Of a stretch of 64,000 nt of DNA, positions 3,663-64,000 are shown piece after piece. Below the pieces are notes generated by a model. The model was given only the letters and a program-made list of their open reading frames with translations. It had not been told where the DNA came from and did not search any database. The stretch is taken from the IMG/VR virus record IMGVR_UViG_3300049044_000033, positions 286,796-350,795 of that record; one strand, written 5' to 3'. This DNA is from a virus (lineage: Duplodnaviria; Heunggongvirae; Uroviricota; Caudoviricetes). Each line of letters opens with the position of its first letter. Positions within the stretch are counted from its first letter, which is position 1. Made by a program: the position numbers and the translations under genes.

Positions 3663-5152
3663 GATAATTCCTTGAGGTAATCCACTTTCGTCACAGAGTG
3701 AGGATAGTTGGCTTCCTTATAAATTTTCTTACGGGCTGTGACGTGCTTTGCTGAGAACTTACAGGTTGACGCAATATCGTAAATTTGGACATAATCTTTG
3801 TCCTTTGCCTTACGAATACCACGACCAATACTCTGAATTACTCGCACAAAGCTCTTGCCGGGTTCAACTAAGATTAGGTTGAAAATACGTGGGATATTGA
3901 TACCCACGGCCGCGACGCCATAGCTAGCGATAACGATTTGGTTAGTGCCCTGACCAATTTCCTCATAGGCTTCCTTTCGGTCAGAAGCCTTAGATGCACC
4001 AAAGACGAAAGTAGCTGCTGGCATACGCTCAGCAAGCTGCTTACCAGTTTCAATACGGTTGATTAGAACTAGTGTGTTACCAGTTAGAGCCGTTTTTTCC
4101 GTGAATTCACTGATCCAGTCTAGATGGTTAGGATCGGTTACTAGGAAGTTGTTTTCTTCATGGAAGGAATCAAATTCCACAGTATCCATGAGCTGTAGGA
4201 TATCCACGTGACACTTAGCCAAGACATCCATGTCCATTAGTTCCTTAGCAGAGAGACGGTTCACAACGTCACCCAGTGATGCTAAGATGGAAGTGAACTC
4301 GTGTTCTTCCTTGGGAACTGTTCCAGTTAGGCCCCAGCGGATTGGAACATTGGCGAATGGACCACAAAGCAAAGCCTTGAGCTTATCCGCTTTTGCCATA
4401 TGAGTCTCGTCGACCATGATGGCAACCACATCCTTGGTAAAGGTGTCAATGTCTTGCTGGGTTGGCTTGAGGTTCTTCTTCTTGGTATTTTTGTCCAAGA
4501 TATCAAGACTCTGCCAGGTGCAAATCGTATGTGTCTTACCATAGTCTTTACGGTCGCCATAATAGACGCCCACATCTAGACCTAGGTTCTTATAGTCAGC
4601 TTCTGTTTGATCCACGAGGCTCTTGTTGGGAACGATAACAATCGTTCTACCATGTGCCTCACATAGATGACTCAGGCTTGCTGTTAGGAGGGTCTTACCC
4701 GCGCCAGTAGCAATTTCCTGAATACATTGTGGATTCTCTAGGAATGATCGGATGATCTCAACCTGGTAGTCCCTCAGCTTAATTGGCTGACCTTCTACCG
4801 GATGACCCTTTGGCCATACTGGGTTAGGAGCATTGTTGTAGATATACTCTTCATCTACAAACGGAAATTCAAAAGACCTTGCGACACGATGGTCTTCAAG
4901 TTCAATTTCATAACCCGCTTCGATCACGATATCTAGGATCTTATCCAAAAGATTAACGTGAGTGTTTCCATTGATAGCAAAAAAGCTGACACACCCGTCC
5001 CACCTGCCAAGCTTGAATGCTGGCATGTGACGAGCAGCGTGGATGAAGAACTTCAGCTTCGCGTTACAGGCGCGACGAGTAGCTGGATCCAAGCCTTCGA
5101 AAGTGGCATTAACTTCATCACGGATGATGAGTTTACATTTCTTAATTGTCAT
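3659..5152 (-). CDS. uvsW: UvsW-like SF2 DNA/RNA-DNA helicase
   Basis: Q motif LRDYQ, Walker A ATGAGKT, DETH, GLTGT, VGINIP, QSIGRGIR. Confidence 0.93.
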   Translation of the reverse strand: MTIKKCKLIIRDEVNATFEGLDPATRRACNAKLKFFIHAARHMPAFKLGRWDGCVSFFAINGNTHVNLLDKILDIVIEAGYEIELEDHRVARSFEFPFVDEEYIYNNAPNPVWPKGHPVEGQPIKLRDYQVEIIRSFLENPQCIQEIATGAGKTLLTASLSHLCEAHGRTIVIVPNKSLVDQTEADYKNLGLDVGVYYGDRKDYGKTHTICTWQSLDILDKNTKKKNLKPTQQDIDTFTKDVVAIMVDETHMAKADKLKALLCGPFANVPIRWGLTGTVPKEEHEFTSILASLGDVVNRLSAKELMDMDVLAKCHVDILQLMDTVEFDSFHEENNFLVTDPNHLDWISEFTEKTALTGNTLVLINRIETGKQLAERMPAATFVFGASKASDRKEAYEEIGQGTNQIVIASYGVAAVGINIPRIFNLILVEPGKSFVRVIQSIGRGIRKAKDKDYVQIYDIASTCKFSAKHVTARKKIYKEANYPHSVTKVDYLKELS

Positions 5153-11218: not shown

Positions 11219-14200
11219 TTACTTGCGGAAGTTTGCGTTCTTCATAACCCTTTCAAGTTCTTCACGGAACTGCGCGTCGCCCTTATCAACCTTCACATCA
11301 TTGATAAAGTCTTCGCTCTTGTCCCCGCCTAGAACTTCTTCAGATTCTTCGTAACGGTCACGGAAACGCTCATATTCGTAATCACCGCGATCATCGTTAC
11401 GAGCGTTAAGTTCTTCACTGATCTGTTCCTTTAGACGATCAATAGTTCTTTCGTCCAACTGATCAATAATGTCCTCACCGTTATCCTTGCGGGTTACACT
11501 GTAGATCGTGATACCACCATGGAAGTTAACATCTGGTTCCGCAGCTTCATCTTCAAAGCTAACCATGACTTCAATGTCATCTTCTAGCTCAGTGCTGACA
11601 TAAGCCTCGATAGTGTTTGGATCAGTCTTAGCTTCGTCCAGAGATTCATCCCAGCTATTCTTCTGAACTACATCAAGTTCAAGAACTGCATCCTTGAGAT
11701 AACGAGCCAGAATCTCAGCCAAAGCATTCCTGAAGTTGTATTCCTCTTCATCAACGTCGTCCTGGCCGATGCCTGGATCAACGCCGAACGATTCTGGATT
11801 AGCTAGAACCTGTGAGGCAAACTGCTTCAGCTTTTCTAGAACTTCCGAGATCTGAGAGTCTTCAATGTGGGCAGCTTCCATGACACTATTGATTGCTTCT
11901 TCAACCGATTCCTTACGATACGCACCGGCCTTAGTCAAAACACCCTTATGCATCGTTACAGTCTTAGAGTCTGGCAAACGTGCGTGGGCATTGTCAAAGG
12001 TAACCTTTGCATTCTTGTCATCAATGGCTACAACTTGACCTGCACCATAGACCTTGTGGGTTACGCGGTCACCAACTTCTAGTTCGCTCTTGAAGTTTGG
12101 GTTAACCGGAGCAGCCTTATCTAGGACTGGCATACCATATTCCCAACGTGGACCGGATTCCAAGACTGACTCCGGAGCAAAGCTTTCGAACCACTCAGAT
12201 AGATCATTCTCTTCCTGAACTCCGCCAAGCTTACCTACCTTATCCATATCGTCAACGTGCATCTGCTTAACGCCACCGTTTAGGAATTCCACAGTAGCAA
12301 TATCGCCATCAACATCTACAACGCGACCTGAGCCCAAGTCAGTTGAAACGTGATTGCCTACCTCAATACCGTGACCCATTGGCTGCTGGTCTTCTGAGGC
12401 AAACTCATACATGGATTCAGAAATCGTCCAACCGTTCTGTTCGAGAACTGGCTTAACCTTCTTTTCAAAGAGATCCTTCGCTTCGACAACAATGAAGCTT
12501 TCAGTGCCCTGGTAACCCGTGATATCATCATCTTCAAAAGCCTTCACGATGTCGTGACAGATGCCCTTGATGAAATAGTTTGCTTCCATTGGTTCAGCCT
12601 GATCAGCAGCACCTAGGCTACCGTCGATGAACTCCCCGTAACCACCATCATTGAGGAAGGTTTCTGCGTCAAAGTTATCGCTGAACTGCTCTAAGCTGTG
12701 CTCGACCTTTGCGAAGTTTCCTTCTTCGTCATCGTATGGATTGCGGCCATAGTAGGACTCGTCCATCTCGTCACCGTTGTCCATGAAGTTCTCAAGCGCG
12801 TTTACCAGCTTGGTCTTCACAGTCTGCTCAGCACCGTCTAGCTTCTTACCTTCAGCCATCTTATCAATGATTGCCGAAACATAGTTGAGGGTAGGAACGT
12901 TTGCGAGCTTGTGCTGGCTAACAAAGAGATCCAGGTAGAAACGTTCCCTAGTGTCTTCATCAGAGAAACCAGGGAAGTGATCTGGGAGATCAGGAATCTG
13001 GATCTGGTCGCCTAGGATAGCACGAAGACCATCAGCTAGTTCGTTGATGCTTGCCTTCTGATCCTTATCCATGTTACCCGTTTCACCCGATGCCGCAAAA
13101 CGAGCATTGGTCCACTGAGTAGCATAATCCAAGAATGCATCGTTCTCGTTGATCCGGTAAGCAGATTCCAAGATGTCTAGATAGTTCTGAGCATCGAGGA
13201 AGGCCTGATCTTCCATGAAAGCAACGTTCGAACCCAAACGCAGCCAATTAGCAGCATCATGGCCATACTCAGAGGCAAGTGCTTCGACTAGTGCGTCAGC
13301 AGCAGCATCCTCTAGAGTGATAACACCATGAAACATTTCATTAATGTTGGTCATATCTTCACCCATTTGTAGCAGAGCGACTGGCATCAAAGACTCTGCC
13401 AGAGCATGGTTAGAATCAATCTTGAGTAGTTCCTGGAGACGAGCTATTTCTTGTCCCAAGGAATCATCCTCAGATAGAGTAGTGGTCATAATAGGAAGAC
13501 CTGCTTCCTTGACCTTTGAGTAACCGCCGGGTCGTGCCATAGTCACGAATGCCTTGCGGATTTCCATAATCCTAGACTTAATAGTTGGGCGGAGAGCAGA
13601 AGCACTCTCATCCAACGCATTCCTAGAATGTAAGATGTAGCGGTTTAGCTTAGAAAGCTGGAGAGACTCACGAGCAAGCTGAACCATAGCCAAGCTAGTT
13701 TCATCATGAGGGGCACCACCCTGCGCAATATGTTGCGCAAAAGCACGACCAGCACTCAAGTGGTTTTCAGGGAATTTGAAACGCTCGCCTTGTGTCGTCT
13801 CAACAAACAAGCTCAAGATGTTGCGACCACGGCTTCCAATTACACCTTCACGGATTGGAGCAGTGTGGCGTATGATTAGCTTCGTAGGGCCAATCTTCTG
13901 ATAGGATGTCTTTGTCGAACCCCACATTGCTGCCTCGGTAACCGAAGCCTGATAGGCAAAATCCTTTGGACGCAATTCACGACCAAACTTGCGGACGTTC
14001 AACATCACATTGTATCGAGTTGTGATCTTACGGAGAGTGTTGATCAACTTGCTTGACTTCTGGACGTCCGAGGACTGGCTCAGATAGACCTTAACTTCAC
14101 TATCCGAACCTGCCTCAATAACACTGATCATTATGTTGCCCGGAGTAGCAAAAACTCGACGAGCTTGGGAGGGTTCAAAGGTCTGATTACCATCTTCGCT

Positions 14201-60863: not shown

Positions 60864-61082
60864 TTGAGCACTCCAATGGAGGAGATTTCTGATCTCCTCC
60901 AAACGTATGCGGACGAGGCAAGAGCCATTGAGAAAAGCCTGATTAGGATTTCCTGGTATATGAGGGGTTCTGTTGATTTGGATCAAGCATATCGAATGAC
61001 GTATCGTCAGCGCAAATACGCATTTGCTTTGATAGAAGAGAACTTAGATAATACCCAGAAAACTGGGATAATGATGCACTAA
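60864..61082 (+). CDS. small hub/tail-assembly ORF, possibly expressed by -1 frameshift
   Basis: ISWYMRGS...AYRMTYRQR; lies in the -1 frame and is open through T TTT TTC at 60846-52. Confidence 0.65.
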   Translation: MSTPMEEISDLLQTYADEARAIEKSLIRISWYMRGSVDLDQAYRMTYRQRKYAFALIEENLDNTQKTGIMMH

Positions 61083-61459
61083 AGAGCACCGCTCTCTAAG
61101 TAGATGCCGGCAAGATTGGAATCACGAAGAACATGACGAAATTCAAGTTCAATACCCTGAGACAGTTGCTTGAATTCTTCGAAAAGGCCGGCAAGCATCT
61201 TGTTATTGATCTTCCAAGCACCTTGAGCCTGCATGATCGCGAGCTTACTGTCTCCGATCACAACACACTTCTCGAGGCCATTATCCTTAGCCCAGACAAC
61301 CGCCCAGATCAAAGCTGACCATTCCGCAATATTATTAGTTCCCTGGCCGAGGTTCTTCATTGTGAGAGCTTCGGCTTTCTTTTCAAGGTGACAAATCACA
61401 ATACAAGCAGACATCTTGCCTGGATTAGGAGAGCAGCCGCCGTCAAAGTAGATTTCCAT
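61079..61459 (-). CDS. rnhA: ribonuclease HI (single domain)
   Basis: YFDGG, TNNIAEWSAL, GDSKL, HVLRDSN; TTGACT-N18-TATATT promoter at 61466-95. Confidence 0.9.
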   Translation of the reverse strand: MEIYFDGGCSPNPGKMSACIVICHLEKKAEALTMKNLGQGTNNIAEWSALIWAVVWAKDNGLEKCVVIGDSKLAIMQAQGAWKINNKMLAGLFEEFKQLSQGIELEFRHVLRDSNLAGIYLESGAL

Positions 61460-61499
61460 GCTGTCAATATAGCATCCTGAACTACTGAGAGTCAACCAG

Positions 61500-62400
61500 T
61501 CAGCAGTGTCTCCGACCTCTTTGATTTCTATTCTTTTCGGAATCTGAGTTCTTTATGTCTATCTCGAAGCCTTTGGGGCTTCGAGAGCTTACGGTGTTTC
61601 TACAAGCTAGTAAACTAGCTTGTCTGCACACCTTCGCATCTACCTTCGGTTGAACTCTGGAACTTAAAAACGAATTATTGTGAATCTCCACGATTGCTAT
61701 GTGGTATTCGATCTTATAACCTAAGTAGTTAGCTCAGAACGAACTAATTAGAAAGGAAGTAAGTGCTCAGGTCCCCTGAAGCACTTCGGACTTACGCAGT
61801 GATTGAGCTTGCGATTGAGCAAGTAAGGCCGTGATCCCTTTAAGTAATATTCTCCAAATCATCCAGTCACACTGACTTCCCCCGTTCCCGGGAGAAGGTC
61901 AAAAAATATATGGAAATGTTAGATTTCACACAATATGACTGGCGTGGACAATTCGAAGGATCCTAGGTCTGCCATTATATCCTGCACCTTTTCAGTGCTC
62001 ATTGCCGCTTCTTTGATACTAACTCACCAGCTGGTGTAGCTTTCTCTACAGGACGGTCGGTAGAATTGTTAGTTCTACCACTCAACGCTTCCTTTGCTCA
62101 CGCCAGCGGCTCGGGAAGCTTGCTTTCTACTTTTCATAGAAAGTCTAGTCTTTGACTAGGGCGCTCCTTCGTTTGGTCGAGTCGAAGCCTGCCTAGCTTT
62201 CCGCGGTTGAACGAGATACCACTTGCCAATCTAGATCTACTAGATCGTCAAGCCCGCCTGGTGTTTTGACCGCTTGCCAAGCTAAGTCCACTTTACCAGC
62301 CCTTGCCGCACCCGAAATCCGCGGGAAGGGGGTTTGAGGGCATGATCTGCCGCTCCAGTGCCTTTTTCTACAACTCCGTAACCAAAACGGGATAAATAGT
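61500..62400 (-). ncRNA. candidate large structured ncRNA or origin-like region
   Basis: About 900 nt without a credible ORF; more than 10 hairpins; long-range GGACTTA/TAAGTCC and CCAGTCA/TGACTGG complements. Confidence 0.5.
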
Positions 62401-62529
62401 TGTGCCAAAAAGCAGTATAAAATTCGGGTGTGCGTATAGGTGTGTTAGCTGTTGCCTGTATATTAGAATAAAATATTTGCTTTGTAATGCCCGGGTTGGA
62501 GGTCTTTCCTCTTCCCGGGCTTATTTTTT
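62400..62529 (+). ncRNA. candidate late small RNA (about 120 nt)
   Basis: TAAATA at 62393-98, imperfect rod hairpin, intrinsic terminator GCCCGGG/CCCGGGC plus TTATTTTTT (62489-62529). Confidence 0.5.
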
Positions 62530-62664
62530 GGGTTTGTTATAAGGTCTAAAAAGTAGAAAACTGCTAAGTTTCCATTAAGGGTATTTATTAGCAGATAACC
62601 TAAAGAGGTTACGAATCAGCTACATCTGAGTTCGATCTATGGGATACCGAAGCATCCCATATAG

Positions 62665-63492
62665 TTAATACGACTTTTTCTTCGCAATTGCAAATATCTG
62701 TCCAGTTCTTGGACGATCTACATCAGCATAACGAATCAAGTAGGGTACAGGAGTATGCTTGACTTCAACGACCCAAGGCGTGCTGGGAACAGCTTCAACG
62801 CCTGATTGCTGGTGAACCATCAGGAAGTTCCAGTGATTATTAGATTCAAGGTTATGGCCCTGAATAATCAGCGGGTTCTCACAATAGGGATGATAGATGT
62901 GCGTCTCTTCGCGTTTGTCTAGATAACGAACGTCATTGAGAGCAGCACGAGGAATCTGAAGATGTCGCTTCGTAACTAGGTCATGGCTGACTAGAAGATC
63001 GATGGGCTTTGCGTAAACATCCTGATCACCAAACGCTTCTTCATTGCGCTTGATCAACTTTCCTGATTGTTCTTTGTAGAACTCAAGGATCTGGGTTGCC
63101 ATTCCCCTACGCACTAGTGGGTGGAGAACAGCAGGAGCAGTGGCTACACTCATAATGCTAAACATGCGCTCATTAAGAAAACGCTCACCCTTGGTATTCT
63201 TGCCCAACAACATCTTGCGATGTGGTTCATAGGCTTCAGGAAGATTTGCGTCTTCCTTCAAACGATCGTAACCCTTAATGCTCTTACCTTCAGAGGCTAG
63301 AACTGCCCAAAGATTTTCCCAATCTTTGTGTAGGGCCAGTAGAGTATCAGGGAACGTCCGTGCGCGTGGTCCCAAGCCTTCAACTAGAGCATTATAGTAG
63401 GCCAGTTCCTGTTTCATAAACTCTTTGAGGCGAAGCTTGTCCTTTGATTGGACGTCTACCATCACCGTCAATTCGCGAAAACGTTCGTTCAT
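62665..63492 (-). CDS. hypothetical protein resembling a TnpB/Cas12f WED-REC lobe without RuvC
   Basis: N-terminal strand-helix RELTVMVDV...KQELAYYNALVE, helical core, KRHLQIP, beta-rich end ...PWVVEVK; no DLG/E/D RuvC triad. Confidence 0.4.
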   Translation of the reverse strand: MNERFRELTVMVDVQSKDKLRLKEFMKQELAYYNALVEGLGPRARTFPDTLLALHKDWENLWAVLASEGKSIKGYDRLKEDANLPEAYEPHRKMLLGKNTKGERFLNERMFSIMSVATAPAVLHPLVRRGMATQILEFYKEQSGKLIKRNEEAFGDQDVYAKPIDLLVSHDLVTKRHLQIPRAALNDVRYLDKREETHIYHPYCENPLIIQGHNLESNNHWNFLMVHQQSGVEAVPSTPWVVEVKHTPVPYLIRYADVDRPRTGQIFAIAKKKSY

Positions 63493-63577
63493 ATATGCTC
63501 CTTTGTCTACTGACTAACATGTGGCAAAGGGGCATCCGATGTCTATAAATATGCGTATATTCAAACAGGAGATATCG

Positions 63578-64000
63578 GTGACTAGTAAGGCTAAGGCAAA
63601 GGGTAACGCATGGGAGAGGGAGATTTGTAATTTCCTCGGTGAAACCCTAGGAGGTAACTTCCAGCGCGTTCCCAACTCAGGTGCTTACATGGGTGGTAAG
63701 AACGTCTTTCGTAAGGAATTCCTCAGTGATGGTCAGCAGCGCGCTGCCAAGGGCGACATTATTCCACCCGATGATTTGCCAAAGCTAAACTTGGAAGCCA
63801 AGAACTATGCTGATATCGCATTCCATCAAATCATTGATGGATCGTGCAAGCAACTAGACGCTTGGATTGATCAGACTGAGGAACCAGCTGATGAAGATGA
63901 TTTGAGCTTCACGATCTTCAAGATCACACGCAAAGGAAGTTGGGTTGTGTTCAAGGCAAAGTACCTAGCAGACTTTGATCTCGCTGGTCTTTCCTATGTG
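63578..64000 (+). CDS. Holliday-junction resolvase (Hjc-like PD-(D/E)xK), runs off the right edge
   Basis: Manual translation from GTG 63578: SKAKAKGNAWERE...FQRVPNSGA...GDII...LEAKNY; late TATAAATA at 63544 and SD AGGAG. Confidence 0.85.
   Translation, partial: MTSKAKAKGNAWEREICNFLGETLGGNFQRVPNSGAYMGGKNVFRKEFLSDGQQRAAKGDIIPPDDLPKLNLEAKNYADIAFHQIIDGSCKQLDAWIDQTEEPADEDDLSFTIFKITRKGSWVVFKAKYLADFDLAGLSYV

Follow-up and report, generated by a model that had tools for sequence, protein, structure and literature searches.

A RuvC-less protein of TnpB-like predicted fold beside exchangeable structured-RNA cassettes in uncultivated T4-like jumbo phages

The DNA analysed here is a stretch of 64,000 nucleotides (the window), positions 286,796 to 350,795 of the IMG/VR record IMGVR_UViG_3300049044_000033, a complete virus genome of 462,455 bp (Caudoviricetes). 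Close to the end of the window, on the minus strand at 62665..63492, lies a gene for a 275-aa protein, which its open reading frame (ORF), its conservation in a family, an AlphaFold2 (AF2) model and fold matches mark as a WED+REC protein without RuvC. The next gene on the same strand encodes an RNase H (61079..61459; PF13456 and PF00075), 126 aa long from a conserved ATG at 61459 that is kept in relatives. Between the two genes is a gap at 61460-62664, which measures 1,205 nt if the RNase H begins at this ATG. The gap holds a structured-RNA cassette that is exchanged between relatives and has the RNase H start as its right border. A first-pass annotation, made from the letters of the window alone, had described a RuvC-less TnpB/Cas12f-like protein, a structured RNA of about 1.15 kb downstream of it and an RNase HI as neighbour; the RNase H was borne out by the two Pfam families.

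The 275-aa ORF was present as described, with the four strings AYYNALVE, KRHLQIP, PWVVEVK and YADVD that had been singled out in it. We found 41 close homologues with 40-75% identity; they measure about 275-295 aa, and the largest contigs that encode them reach 480 kb. A profile search against 1.8 billion representatives gave 194 clusters at 50% identity, nearly all of 230-345 aa, and none of the 194 had the length of a full TnpB. We concluded from this uniform shortness that the proteins form a stable short family and that the 275-aa protein is not a truncated pseudogene. The near-invariant residues over 32 diverse members were E29, N34, Q142, K175-R176-H177-x-Q179, W240, Y251 and D257. Neither Pfam nor PHROG gave a match for the protein. 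Among GenBank phages neither the window protein nor two distant members had a DNA or protein match, chance matches at E up to 10 aside, and a search for related loci seeded with the distant member P0104 alone returned nothing. Judged by sequence, the family is confined to uncultivated T4-like jumbo phages among the matches found. The gene stands in a conserved block (Rad50-like ... PDDEXK_15 / WED+REC gene / RNase H / baseplate hub) and this synteny was retained across homologues down to 27% protein identity. It is a vertically inherited core gene of the T4-like jumbo-phage lineage.

The AF2 model, built from a 21-sequence alignment, reached a pLDDT of 84.5 and a pTM of 0.84. It consists of one strand, a helical bundle (residues 16-147), six strands (177-245) and a short C-terminal tail, which carries the motif Y-x-D-V-D/E. 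When the model was compared with 48,161 PDB representatives, the top 27 chains were all TnpB, Fanzor or Cas12 proteins, aligned to their N-terminal WED+REC part only. The best match was TnpB 8h1j, residues 1-174, with Z 9.1, 168 aligned residues and an rmsd of 3.9. Fanzor2, Cas12f, Cas12m, Cas12k, CasLambda and others matched the model with Z 5-9, and the WED domain split by a helical REC insertion was recognised over model residues 1-247 with Z 7-9.1 to TnpB, Fanzor2, Cas12f, Cas12m, Cas12k and others. The first unrelated chain followed at Z 5.0 with an rmsd of 10.9. Foldseek on the PDB returned the same TnpB/Fanzor/Cas12 family. The matched AFDB clusters were mostly named 'transposase IS891/IS1136/IS1341', the ESM Atlas clusters matched by structure carry PF12323 and PF01385, and in BFVD two unnamed viral proteins of the same family were found (best TM 0.77, 27% identity). 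Thus the recognition-lobe architecture of TnpB/Cas12f, which had been read from the order of sequence elements, was supported by the model and the PDB comparison, and the proposed check of the predicted fold against TnpB, Cas12f and Fanzor with Foldseek revealed the WED+REC similarity. An ESM Atlas feature search also gave eukaryotic DUF8422 clusters at 0.91; these share few features with the protein and were taken as chance.

The protein ends where RuvC-I should start, as had been noted before: the chain stops at residue 275, 28 residues past the last WED strand. Neither the RuvC family PF01385 (OrfB_IS605) nor the zinc finger family PF07282 (Cas12f1-like_TNB) was detected in any of the six frames of the whole 462-kb genome, the gap included. 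A decayed RuvC pseudogene in the gap was thereby ruled out, and likewise a split partner elsewhere in the genome. C204 is the sole cysteine of the protein, so that no Cys cluster can exist. Compared with TnpB of the IS200/IS605 elements (e.g. ISDra2; 8h1j) and with the miniature Cas12f, the 275-aa protein shares the first WED strand, the helical REC insertion and the remaining WED strands, but lacks RuvC, the TNB domain and detectable sequence homology, and no guide was found for it. It also differs in its setting, as there are no transposon ends or TnpA nearby and the gene is a single-copy phage core gene and not a mobile element. The giant-virus Fanzor2 (9b0l) is similar in being virus-encoded and in the superposition of WED+REC (Z 9.1), whereas Fanzor has an active RuvC and an omegaRNA and is associated with transposons.

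Descent from TnpB is suggested by the fold only, which weighs against our interpretation of the protein: the similarity is moderate (Z ~9, TM 0.33-0.48) and no sequence signal accompanies it. Pfam gave no match to PF12323 or PF01385 for the protein or for 32 family members, and the family profile searched against PDB sequences hit no TnpB or Cas12 chain. We therefore considered that the fold might not come from TnpB and that the protein is an unrelated or very ancient module, a beta-barrel-like wedge with a helical bundle, serving for example as a replication or recombination accessory factor. Its place among the recombination genes Rad50-like, PDDEXK and RNase H would suit such a function. 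We regard this origin as unlikely, because among 48,161 chains the first 27 places fall to TnpB, Fanzor and Cas12 without exception and the match spans the entire WED+REC lobe with its order kept, the first unrelated chain has Z 5.0 and an rmsd of 10.9, and the independent libraries (AFDB clusters; ESM Atlas clusters with PF12323/PF01385) agree. The fold suggests an exapted TnpB/Cas12 scaffold, the 275-aa protein being a derivative or relative of it that has no nuclease.

To our knowledge the known exaptations of TnpB/Cas12 (Cas12k, Cas12m, TldR and the sigma-associated TnpB) are all nuclease-dead and yet have kept the RuvC fold. TldR and its kin keep this fold with mutated residues and have a short guide RNA encoded beside the gene. 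Phage-encoded TldR, nuclease-dead TnpB-derived repressors, have reportedly been described by Wiegand and colleagues. Other inactivated TnpBs retain an inactivated RuvC as well (Altae-Tran et al., PMC10691335). The 275-aa protein resembles TldR and the nuclease-dead TnpBs as a domesticated TnpB-type scaffold without cleavage, with a phage-encoded precedent among them, but its RuvC half is wholly absent and the neighbouring RNA is 0.6-0.9 kb long, structured and of two unrelated kinds, with no guide found. A family of WED+REC only, kept as a core gene in ~460-kb phages, would be the most reduced derivative of the TnpB/Cas12 scaffold so far, and a natural test of what this lobe does alone.

The gene is followed by an ORF-free gap of 1.0-1.5 kb in every fetched locus whose protein is at least 35% identical. 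No conserved ORF was found in the gap, and a coding explanation was ruled out, since relatives do not share the frame or the strand of their open frames. Fourteen loci including the window could be aligned along their length (alignment A5) and are referred to as type A. From this alignment RNAalifold delimited a large structured non-coding RNA at 61735..62575 on the minus strand, with an inferred extent and an uncertain 3' end. For the whole region from a promoter-like motif on, 166 pairs were obtained, 83 of them with a compensatory change, as against 33-43 when the partners were slid by 1-3 columns. Standard pairs filled 88.7% of the cells, compared with 38-47% for the slid partners. Read on the opposite strand, the same helices were paired to 81.3%, and 245 G-U cells were counted on the minus strand against 77 on the other. 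We concluded from the pairing and from the G-U counts that the RNA strand is the strand of the protein gene. The window's own type A sequence folded singly with z -4.7. The structured RNA of about 1.15 kb that had been predicted downstream of the gene therefore proved real as a 1,205-nt gap with strong minus-strand covariation.

The most conserved core of the type A RNA, about 350 nt at 61855..62205 (minus), is more conserved than the protein, and nhmmer matched it beside proteins that are only 35-40% identical (L005, E 8e-26; L026, E 3e-46; L031 and L033, ~390 bits; related loci are numbered with the prefix L). In this core RNAalifold gave 75 pairs, of which 34 show compensatory changes. The 3' part of the gap (61497..61734, minus) is poorly conserved in the alignment profile and contains local hairpins. 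Group I and II introns, GOLLD, ROOL, HEARO and other large RNAs had no Rfam match in the gap. An intron was ruled out, because Rfam gave no match and the stop codon of the ORF is conserved, also among homologues in which the gap is missing.

Apart from weak matches at chance level, a search of Rfam up to E 1 turned up a single match in the gap, to EGFOA (RF02955), at 61945..62074 on the minus strand. With 36.1 bits (E 3.7e-4; E 1.1e-5 genome-wide) it stays below the gathering score of 37.7, and we therefore refer to it as an EGFOA-like domain. The match recurs at the same place in L005, L021, L022 and L023 with 33.9-37.1 bits. The helices of the EGFOA model covary in the type A alignment, with 4, 3 and 3 compensatory pairs at the gap positions 659-664/713-718, 667-671/677-681 and 682-686/704-708. 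The type A domain fits the model (Weinberg et al. 2017, PMC5737381) from end to end, from ACCGUCCU to AGACCU-GG with the same helices; it differs in a 35-nt insertion and in being embedded in an RNA of ~800 nt. The EGFOA family is characterised by unusually large gene-free regions (bioRxiv 10.64898/2026.07.01.735769), and the type A domain also lies in such a region of environmental phage DNA, the 1,205-nt gap. Outside the motif no sequence similarity between the type A locus and a canonical EGFOA locus was detected.

Canonical EGFOA (68.9 bits) was found on contigs of small phages, within some 1.5 kb that contain no gene and precede a terminase-like gene (terL). On these contigs tblastn with the window protein gave no WED/REC homologue, and no large ORF adjoins the RNA. 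A relaxed EGFOA-like DNA pattern run over viral and genome collections yielded only chance matches besides the two canonical EGFOA loci, and 232 loci from the EGFOA-like pattern scan contained no type A RNA and no protein homologue by nhmmer and tblastn. EGFOA RNAs self-assemble in vitro into trimers and strand-swapped dimers seen by cryo-EM (bioRxiv 10.64898/2026.07.01.735769), and the type A domain may reasonably be expected to do likewise. The locus places the EGFOA-like domain in a genome, assigns it a strand and supplies likely promoters and numerous orthologues, for a class that was previously without biological context. One canonical EGFOA locus (L138:11850-13356, minus) also contains three tandem copies of a ~31-nt repeat near 12950-13040.

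Six further loci carry an RNA of another kind, type B, which has only the first ~200 nt after the stop codon in common with type A; the bodies are unrelated. Type B contains a highly conserved stretch of ~500 nt (80-94% per 30-nt window) and the RNA is roughly 550-650 nt long. Over 643 alignment columns 167 pairs were predicted, with 94% of the cells paired against 38-45% for slid partners and 86% on the opposite strand; 42 pairs were compensatory, against 2-14 when slid. No Rfam match was obtained for type B, hence none to EGFOA. An antisense open frame in type B was ruled out as coding, as its substitutions show no 3-nt periodicity (0.41, 0.43, 0.40). Both RNAs resemble GOLLD and ROOL (PMC12286853) as large (>500 nt), highly structured phage or prophage RNAs of unknown function, but they have no Rfam match to these and differ from them in sequence, secondary structure and genomic setting. 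In the literature searched there was no report of a RuvC-less TnpB-like family or of the cassette RNA. With types A and B, the locus adds two large RNAs that are new and strongly backed by covariation.

The first ~200 nt, shared by both types, form a common 5' platform. Directly after the stop codon stands hairpin 1 (62638..62661, minus; -14.7 kcal/mol, z -4.9), with a 10-bp stem and a cUUCGg loop. It is followed by AGAUCG and has no U-tract, in agreement with the first-pass annotation. At the same position 9 relatives have hairpins of differing sequence, never with a U-tract; the structure is thus kept and the sequence is not. Next comes the box hairpin (62612..62634, minus), CGAA-C-UCAG and CUGA-UUCG around an invariant AUGUAG loop, which occurs as a single copy in the genome. 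The box CAGATGTAGCTG was invariant in every RNA-bearing locus, the variant CGGATGTAGACG of L015 being a compensatory change of A-U to G-C. Of its 7 pairs 3 have compensatory changes, and G-U pairs occur on the minus strand.

A variable hairpin separates the box hairpin from TAAATA (62582..62587, minus), a late-promoter-like motif that faces the RNA cassette. Of the 17 aligned loci, with both RNA types among them, 16 have it without change, and in L026 it was not seen. Genome-wide there are 140 TAAATA sites on both strands, 94 of them in the 21% outside long called ORFs, and the motif stands at most 80 nt upstream of 58 of 531 ORFs, with flanking preferences and a favoured A seven bases downstream. 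On this sequence evidence TAAATA behaves like a late promoter of the jumbo phage. The motif is strongly depleted overall in the 462 kb and concentrated upstream of ORFs, and offers a usable late-promoter model for annotating the phage. The motif is followed by CUACUUUAUAGCCCC, which in type A pairs with the conserved GGGCUGGGAAAGUGG ~250 nt downstream and so closes the 5' domain. A two-tier hairpin at 62486..62523 was found in 17 of 17 loci, type A and type B alike, and 9 of its 14 bp have compensatory changes; on the minus strand it follows an A-run, and in the plus-strand reading it is a candidate intrinsic terminator with a T-run.

A further motif, ATAAATA on the plus strand (62392..62398; TATTTAT on the RNA strand), is invariant in 14 of 14 type A loci. 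It could drive an antisense RNA of ~130 nt that would end at the terminator-like hairpin. This candidate RNA (62392-62532, plus) has a variable body, lies within the 5' domain of the large RNA and has the hairpin and T-run ~100 nt downstream of the motif. In the type B alignment, inspected by eye, the hairpin is kept and no equivalent plus-strand ATAAATA was seen.

The two RNA types are not distributed along the protein tree as separate branches; the RNA type switches at least 4 times on it. L003 and L004 (type B) encode proteins identical to that of L011 (type A), and the RNA bodies that follow are unrelated. At the DNA level 98% identity extends 49 nt beyond the stop codon, to just past the box, and resumes exactly at the RNase H ATG; only the cassette in between differs. 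The swap is bordered by the box on one side and the RNase H start on the other, the flanks with the best conservation, a pattern that fits homologous recombination between co-infecting relatives. Such a swap under an identical protein is a natural experiment on the interdependence of RNA and protein.

The locus had earlier been interpreted as an RNA-guided or RNA-scaffolded DNA-binding ribonucleoprotein (RNP). The analysis does not support this, given that the RNA bodies swap under an identical protein and that distant homologues do without the RNA. At 27-32% identity homologues lacking the downstream region do exist: in L027, L028 and L034-36 ORFs follow directly after the gene, without gap, RNA or box, and the box hairpin is absent. 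In the same five loci the baseplate hub synteny is kept, and most of them keep the PDDEXK or the RNase H neighbour. As to an omegaRNA derived from the 3' end of the gene, synonymous-site identity was 0.65 and 0.51 in the last two windows of the gene against a mean of 0.47; as this is at most a slight rise, an overlapping omegaRNA is not indicated. With modest confidence we favour the explanation that the locus consists of two separable elements, a nuclease-less WED+REC protein and an exchangeable, independent structured-RNA cassette.

Several observations weigh against such a separation and speak for an RNP, in which the WED+REC protein would bind the shared 5' platform (box hairpin and closing helix) and either RNA type would serve as an interchangeable scaffold or cargo, for example tethering the RNA to DNA or to the replication or recombination machinery encoded next door. 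In each of ~20 distinct loci whose protein has 35% identity or more, a type A or type B RNA stands directly downstream on the same strand. Exact-pattern scans of IMG/VR gave 5 hits for type A and 4 for type B, all of them at the WED/REC locus. The box loop is invariant, the changes in its stem being compensatory, and since the box remains invariant down to 35% protein identity, some conserved factor is taken to read it, an obvious candidate being the 275-aa protein. Read-through past hairpin 1, which lacks a U-tract, is possible and may also yield the RNA, because L026 has no TAAATA. Finally, WED and REC are established as the parts with which TnpB/Cas12 bind RNA and the heteroduplex. On the other side stand the distant homologues without RNA and box, the exchange of the RNA body with the protein unchanged, the slight synonymous conservation at the gene's 3' end, the cassette's own promoter motif, and the canonical EGFOA RNAs in small phages that show no such gene; the adjacency may be mere inherited synteny within one clade. 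Taken together, we consider the RNP possible, without expecting it.

We also weighed a strict guide function of the TnpB/TldR type, in which an RNA segment would lead the nuclease-less protein to a site in host or phage DNA, where it would form an R-loop at an origin or control transcription. Besides the fold match to TnpB it has precedent only, namely the phage-encoded TldR repressors and other inactivated TnpBs (PMC10691335), and these have kept the RuvC fold that is gone here. A CRISPR-like or omegaRNA array was ruled out, as the gap contains no direct repeats. The genome-wide search for matches to RNA segments, which had been proposed as a check, found no gap segment that matches the 462-kb genome beyond chance. 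The variable segments seen in the RNA are covarying hairpins with no obvious single strands, and two unrelated RNA bodies accompany one protein. The role in an origin R-loop that had been suggested found no support at the locus; no GC-skew inflection was detected there (348 kb), which is weak evidence. A guide function is in our view very improbable.

If the locus consists of two separable elements, the following mechanism can be proposed. The 275-aa protein probably binds nucleic acid via the conserved K-R-H-x-Q strand; since it would work without RuvC, it is expected to be a binder and not a cutter. At least part of the transcription of the cassette RNA would start from TAAATA, a late-type promoter of its own, and recombination that exchanges RNA bodies among closely related phages would have the box hairpin and the RNase H start as its limits. 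The RNA may act through its own architecture, self-assembling or scaffolding like EGFOA, GOLLD and ROOL, and would not be a guide for the protein. By analogy with GOLLD and ROOL, a self-assembling architecture is a plausible mode of action. Any contact between protein and RNA would go via the shared ~200-nt 5' platform, chiefly the AUGUAG box hairpin. More tentatively, the nuclease-stripped TnpB-type core protein might recognise the AUGUAG box as a handle and thereby load, position or process interchangeable giant RNAs, in an RNP that is not guided. We find this rather doubtful; if true, it would provide the first protein partner for the orphan EGFOA class.

On the other side of the WED+REC gene lies a divergent PDDEXK_15 endonuclease gene (63579..64000, plus), which continues beyond the window and is identified by PF24608 and PHROG 244. 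A Holliday-junction resolvase had been named as the neighbour here. Pfam assigns the gene to the PDDEXK_15 endonucleases, and the PHROG 244 label is RusA-like. Starting at GTG 63579 the protein has 179 aa, the length of all PDDEXK_15 homologues, and the ORF start at 63521 is therefore probably wrong. The gene adjoins in every locus examined except L027, and its full ORF was seen in L270. A perfect T4-type TATAAATA occurs at 63543-63578 (plus), ~28 nt upstream of the GTG at 63579 with its GGAG ribosome site. In some relatives HNH_3 genes stand between the PDDEXK and the WED/REC genes (L002:3444-3917, L025:2437-2898).

Towards the RNase H gene, a sigma-70-like promoter, TTGACT-18-TATATT, was recognised at 61466..61495 (minus) with 10 of 12 matches and a TG extension. 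Past the RNase H follow a 72-aa ORF, a T4-type baseplate hub gene and an 811-aa ORF. In L022 (3832-5379) and L026 (4817-6084) tblastn gave no RNase H match after the RNA; the final ~140 nt before the baseplate gene align between these two loci, and the shared element may have replaced the RNase H. Extra ORFs were observed at the 3' end of the cassette before the RNase H in three relatives (L004:5671-6108, L025:4626-5078, L020:5053-5367). These inserted ORFs belong to PHROG 5104, and that of L004 weakly matches an endonuclease VII PHROG. From such insertions the locus looks like an insertion hot spot, possibly with homing-endonuclease activity. In L027 an 85-aa ORF (4795-5052) between the WED/REC homologue and the RNase H carries a SutA RNA-polymerase-binding domain (29.5 bits, cut-off 29.3). 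At the ends of the source record the first 50 nt are repeated at 462,328. The direct terminal repeat is thus only ~127 bp long and may represent an assembly overlap of a circularly permuted genome.

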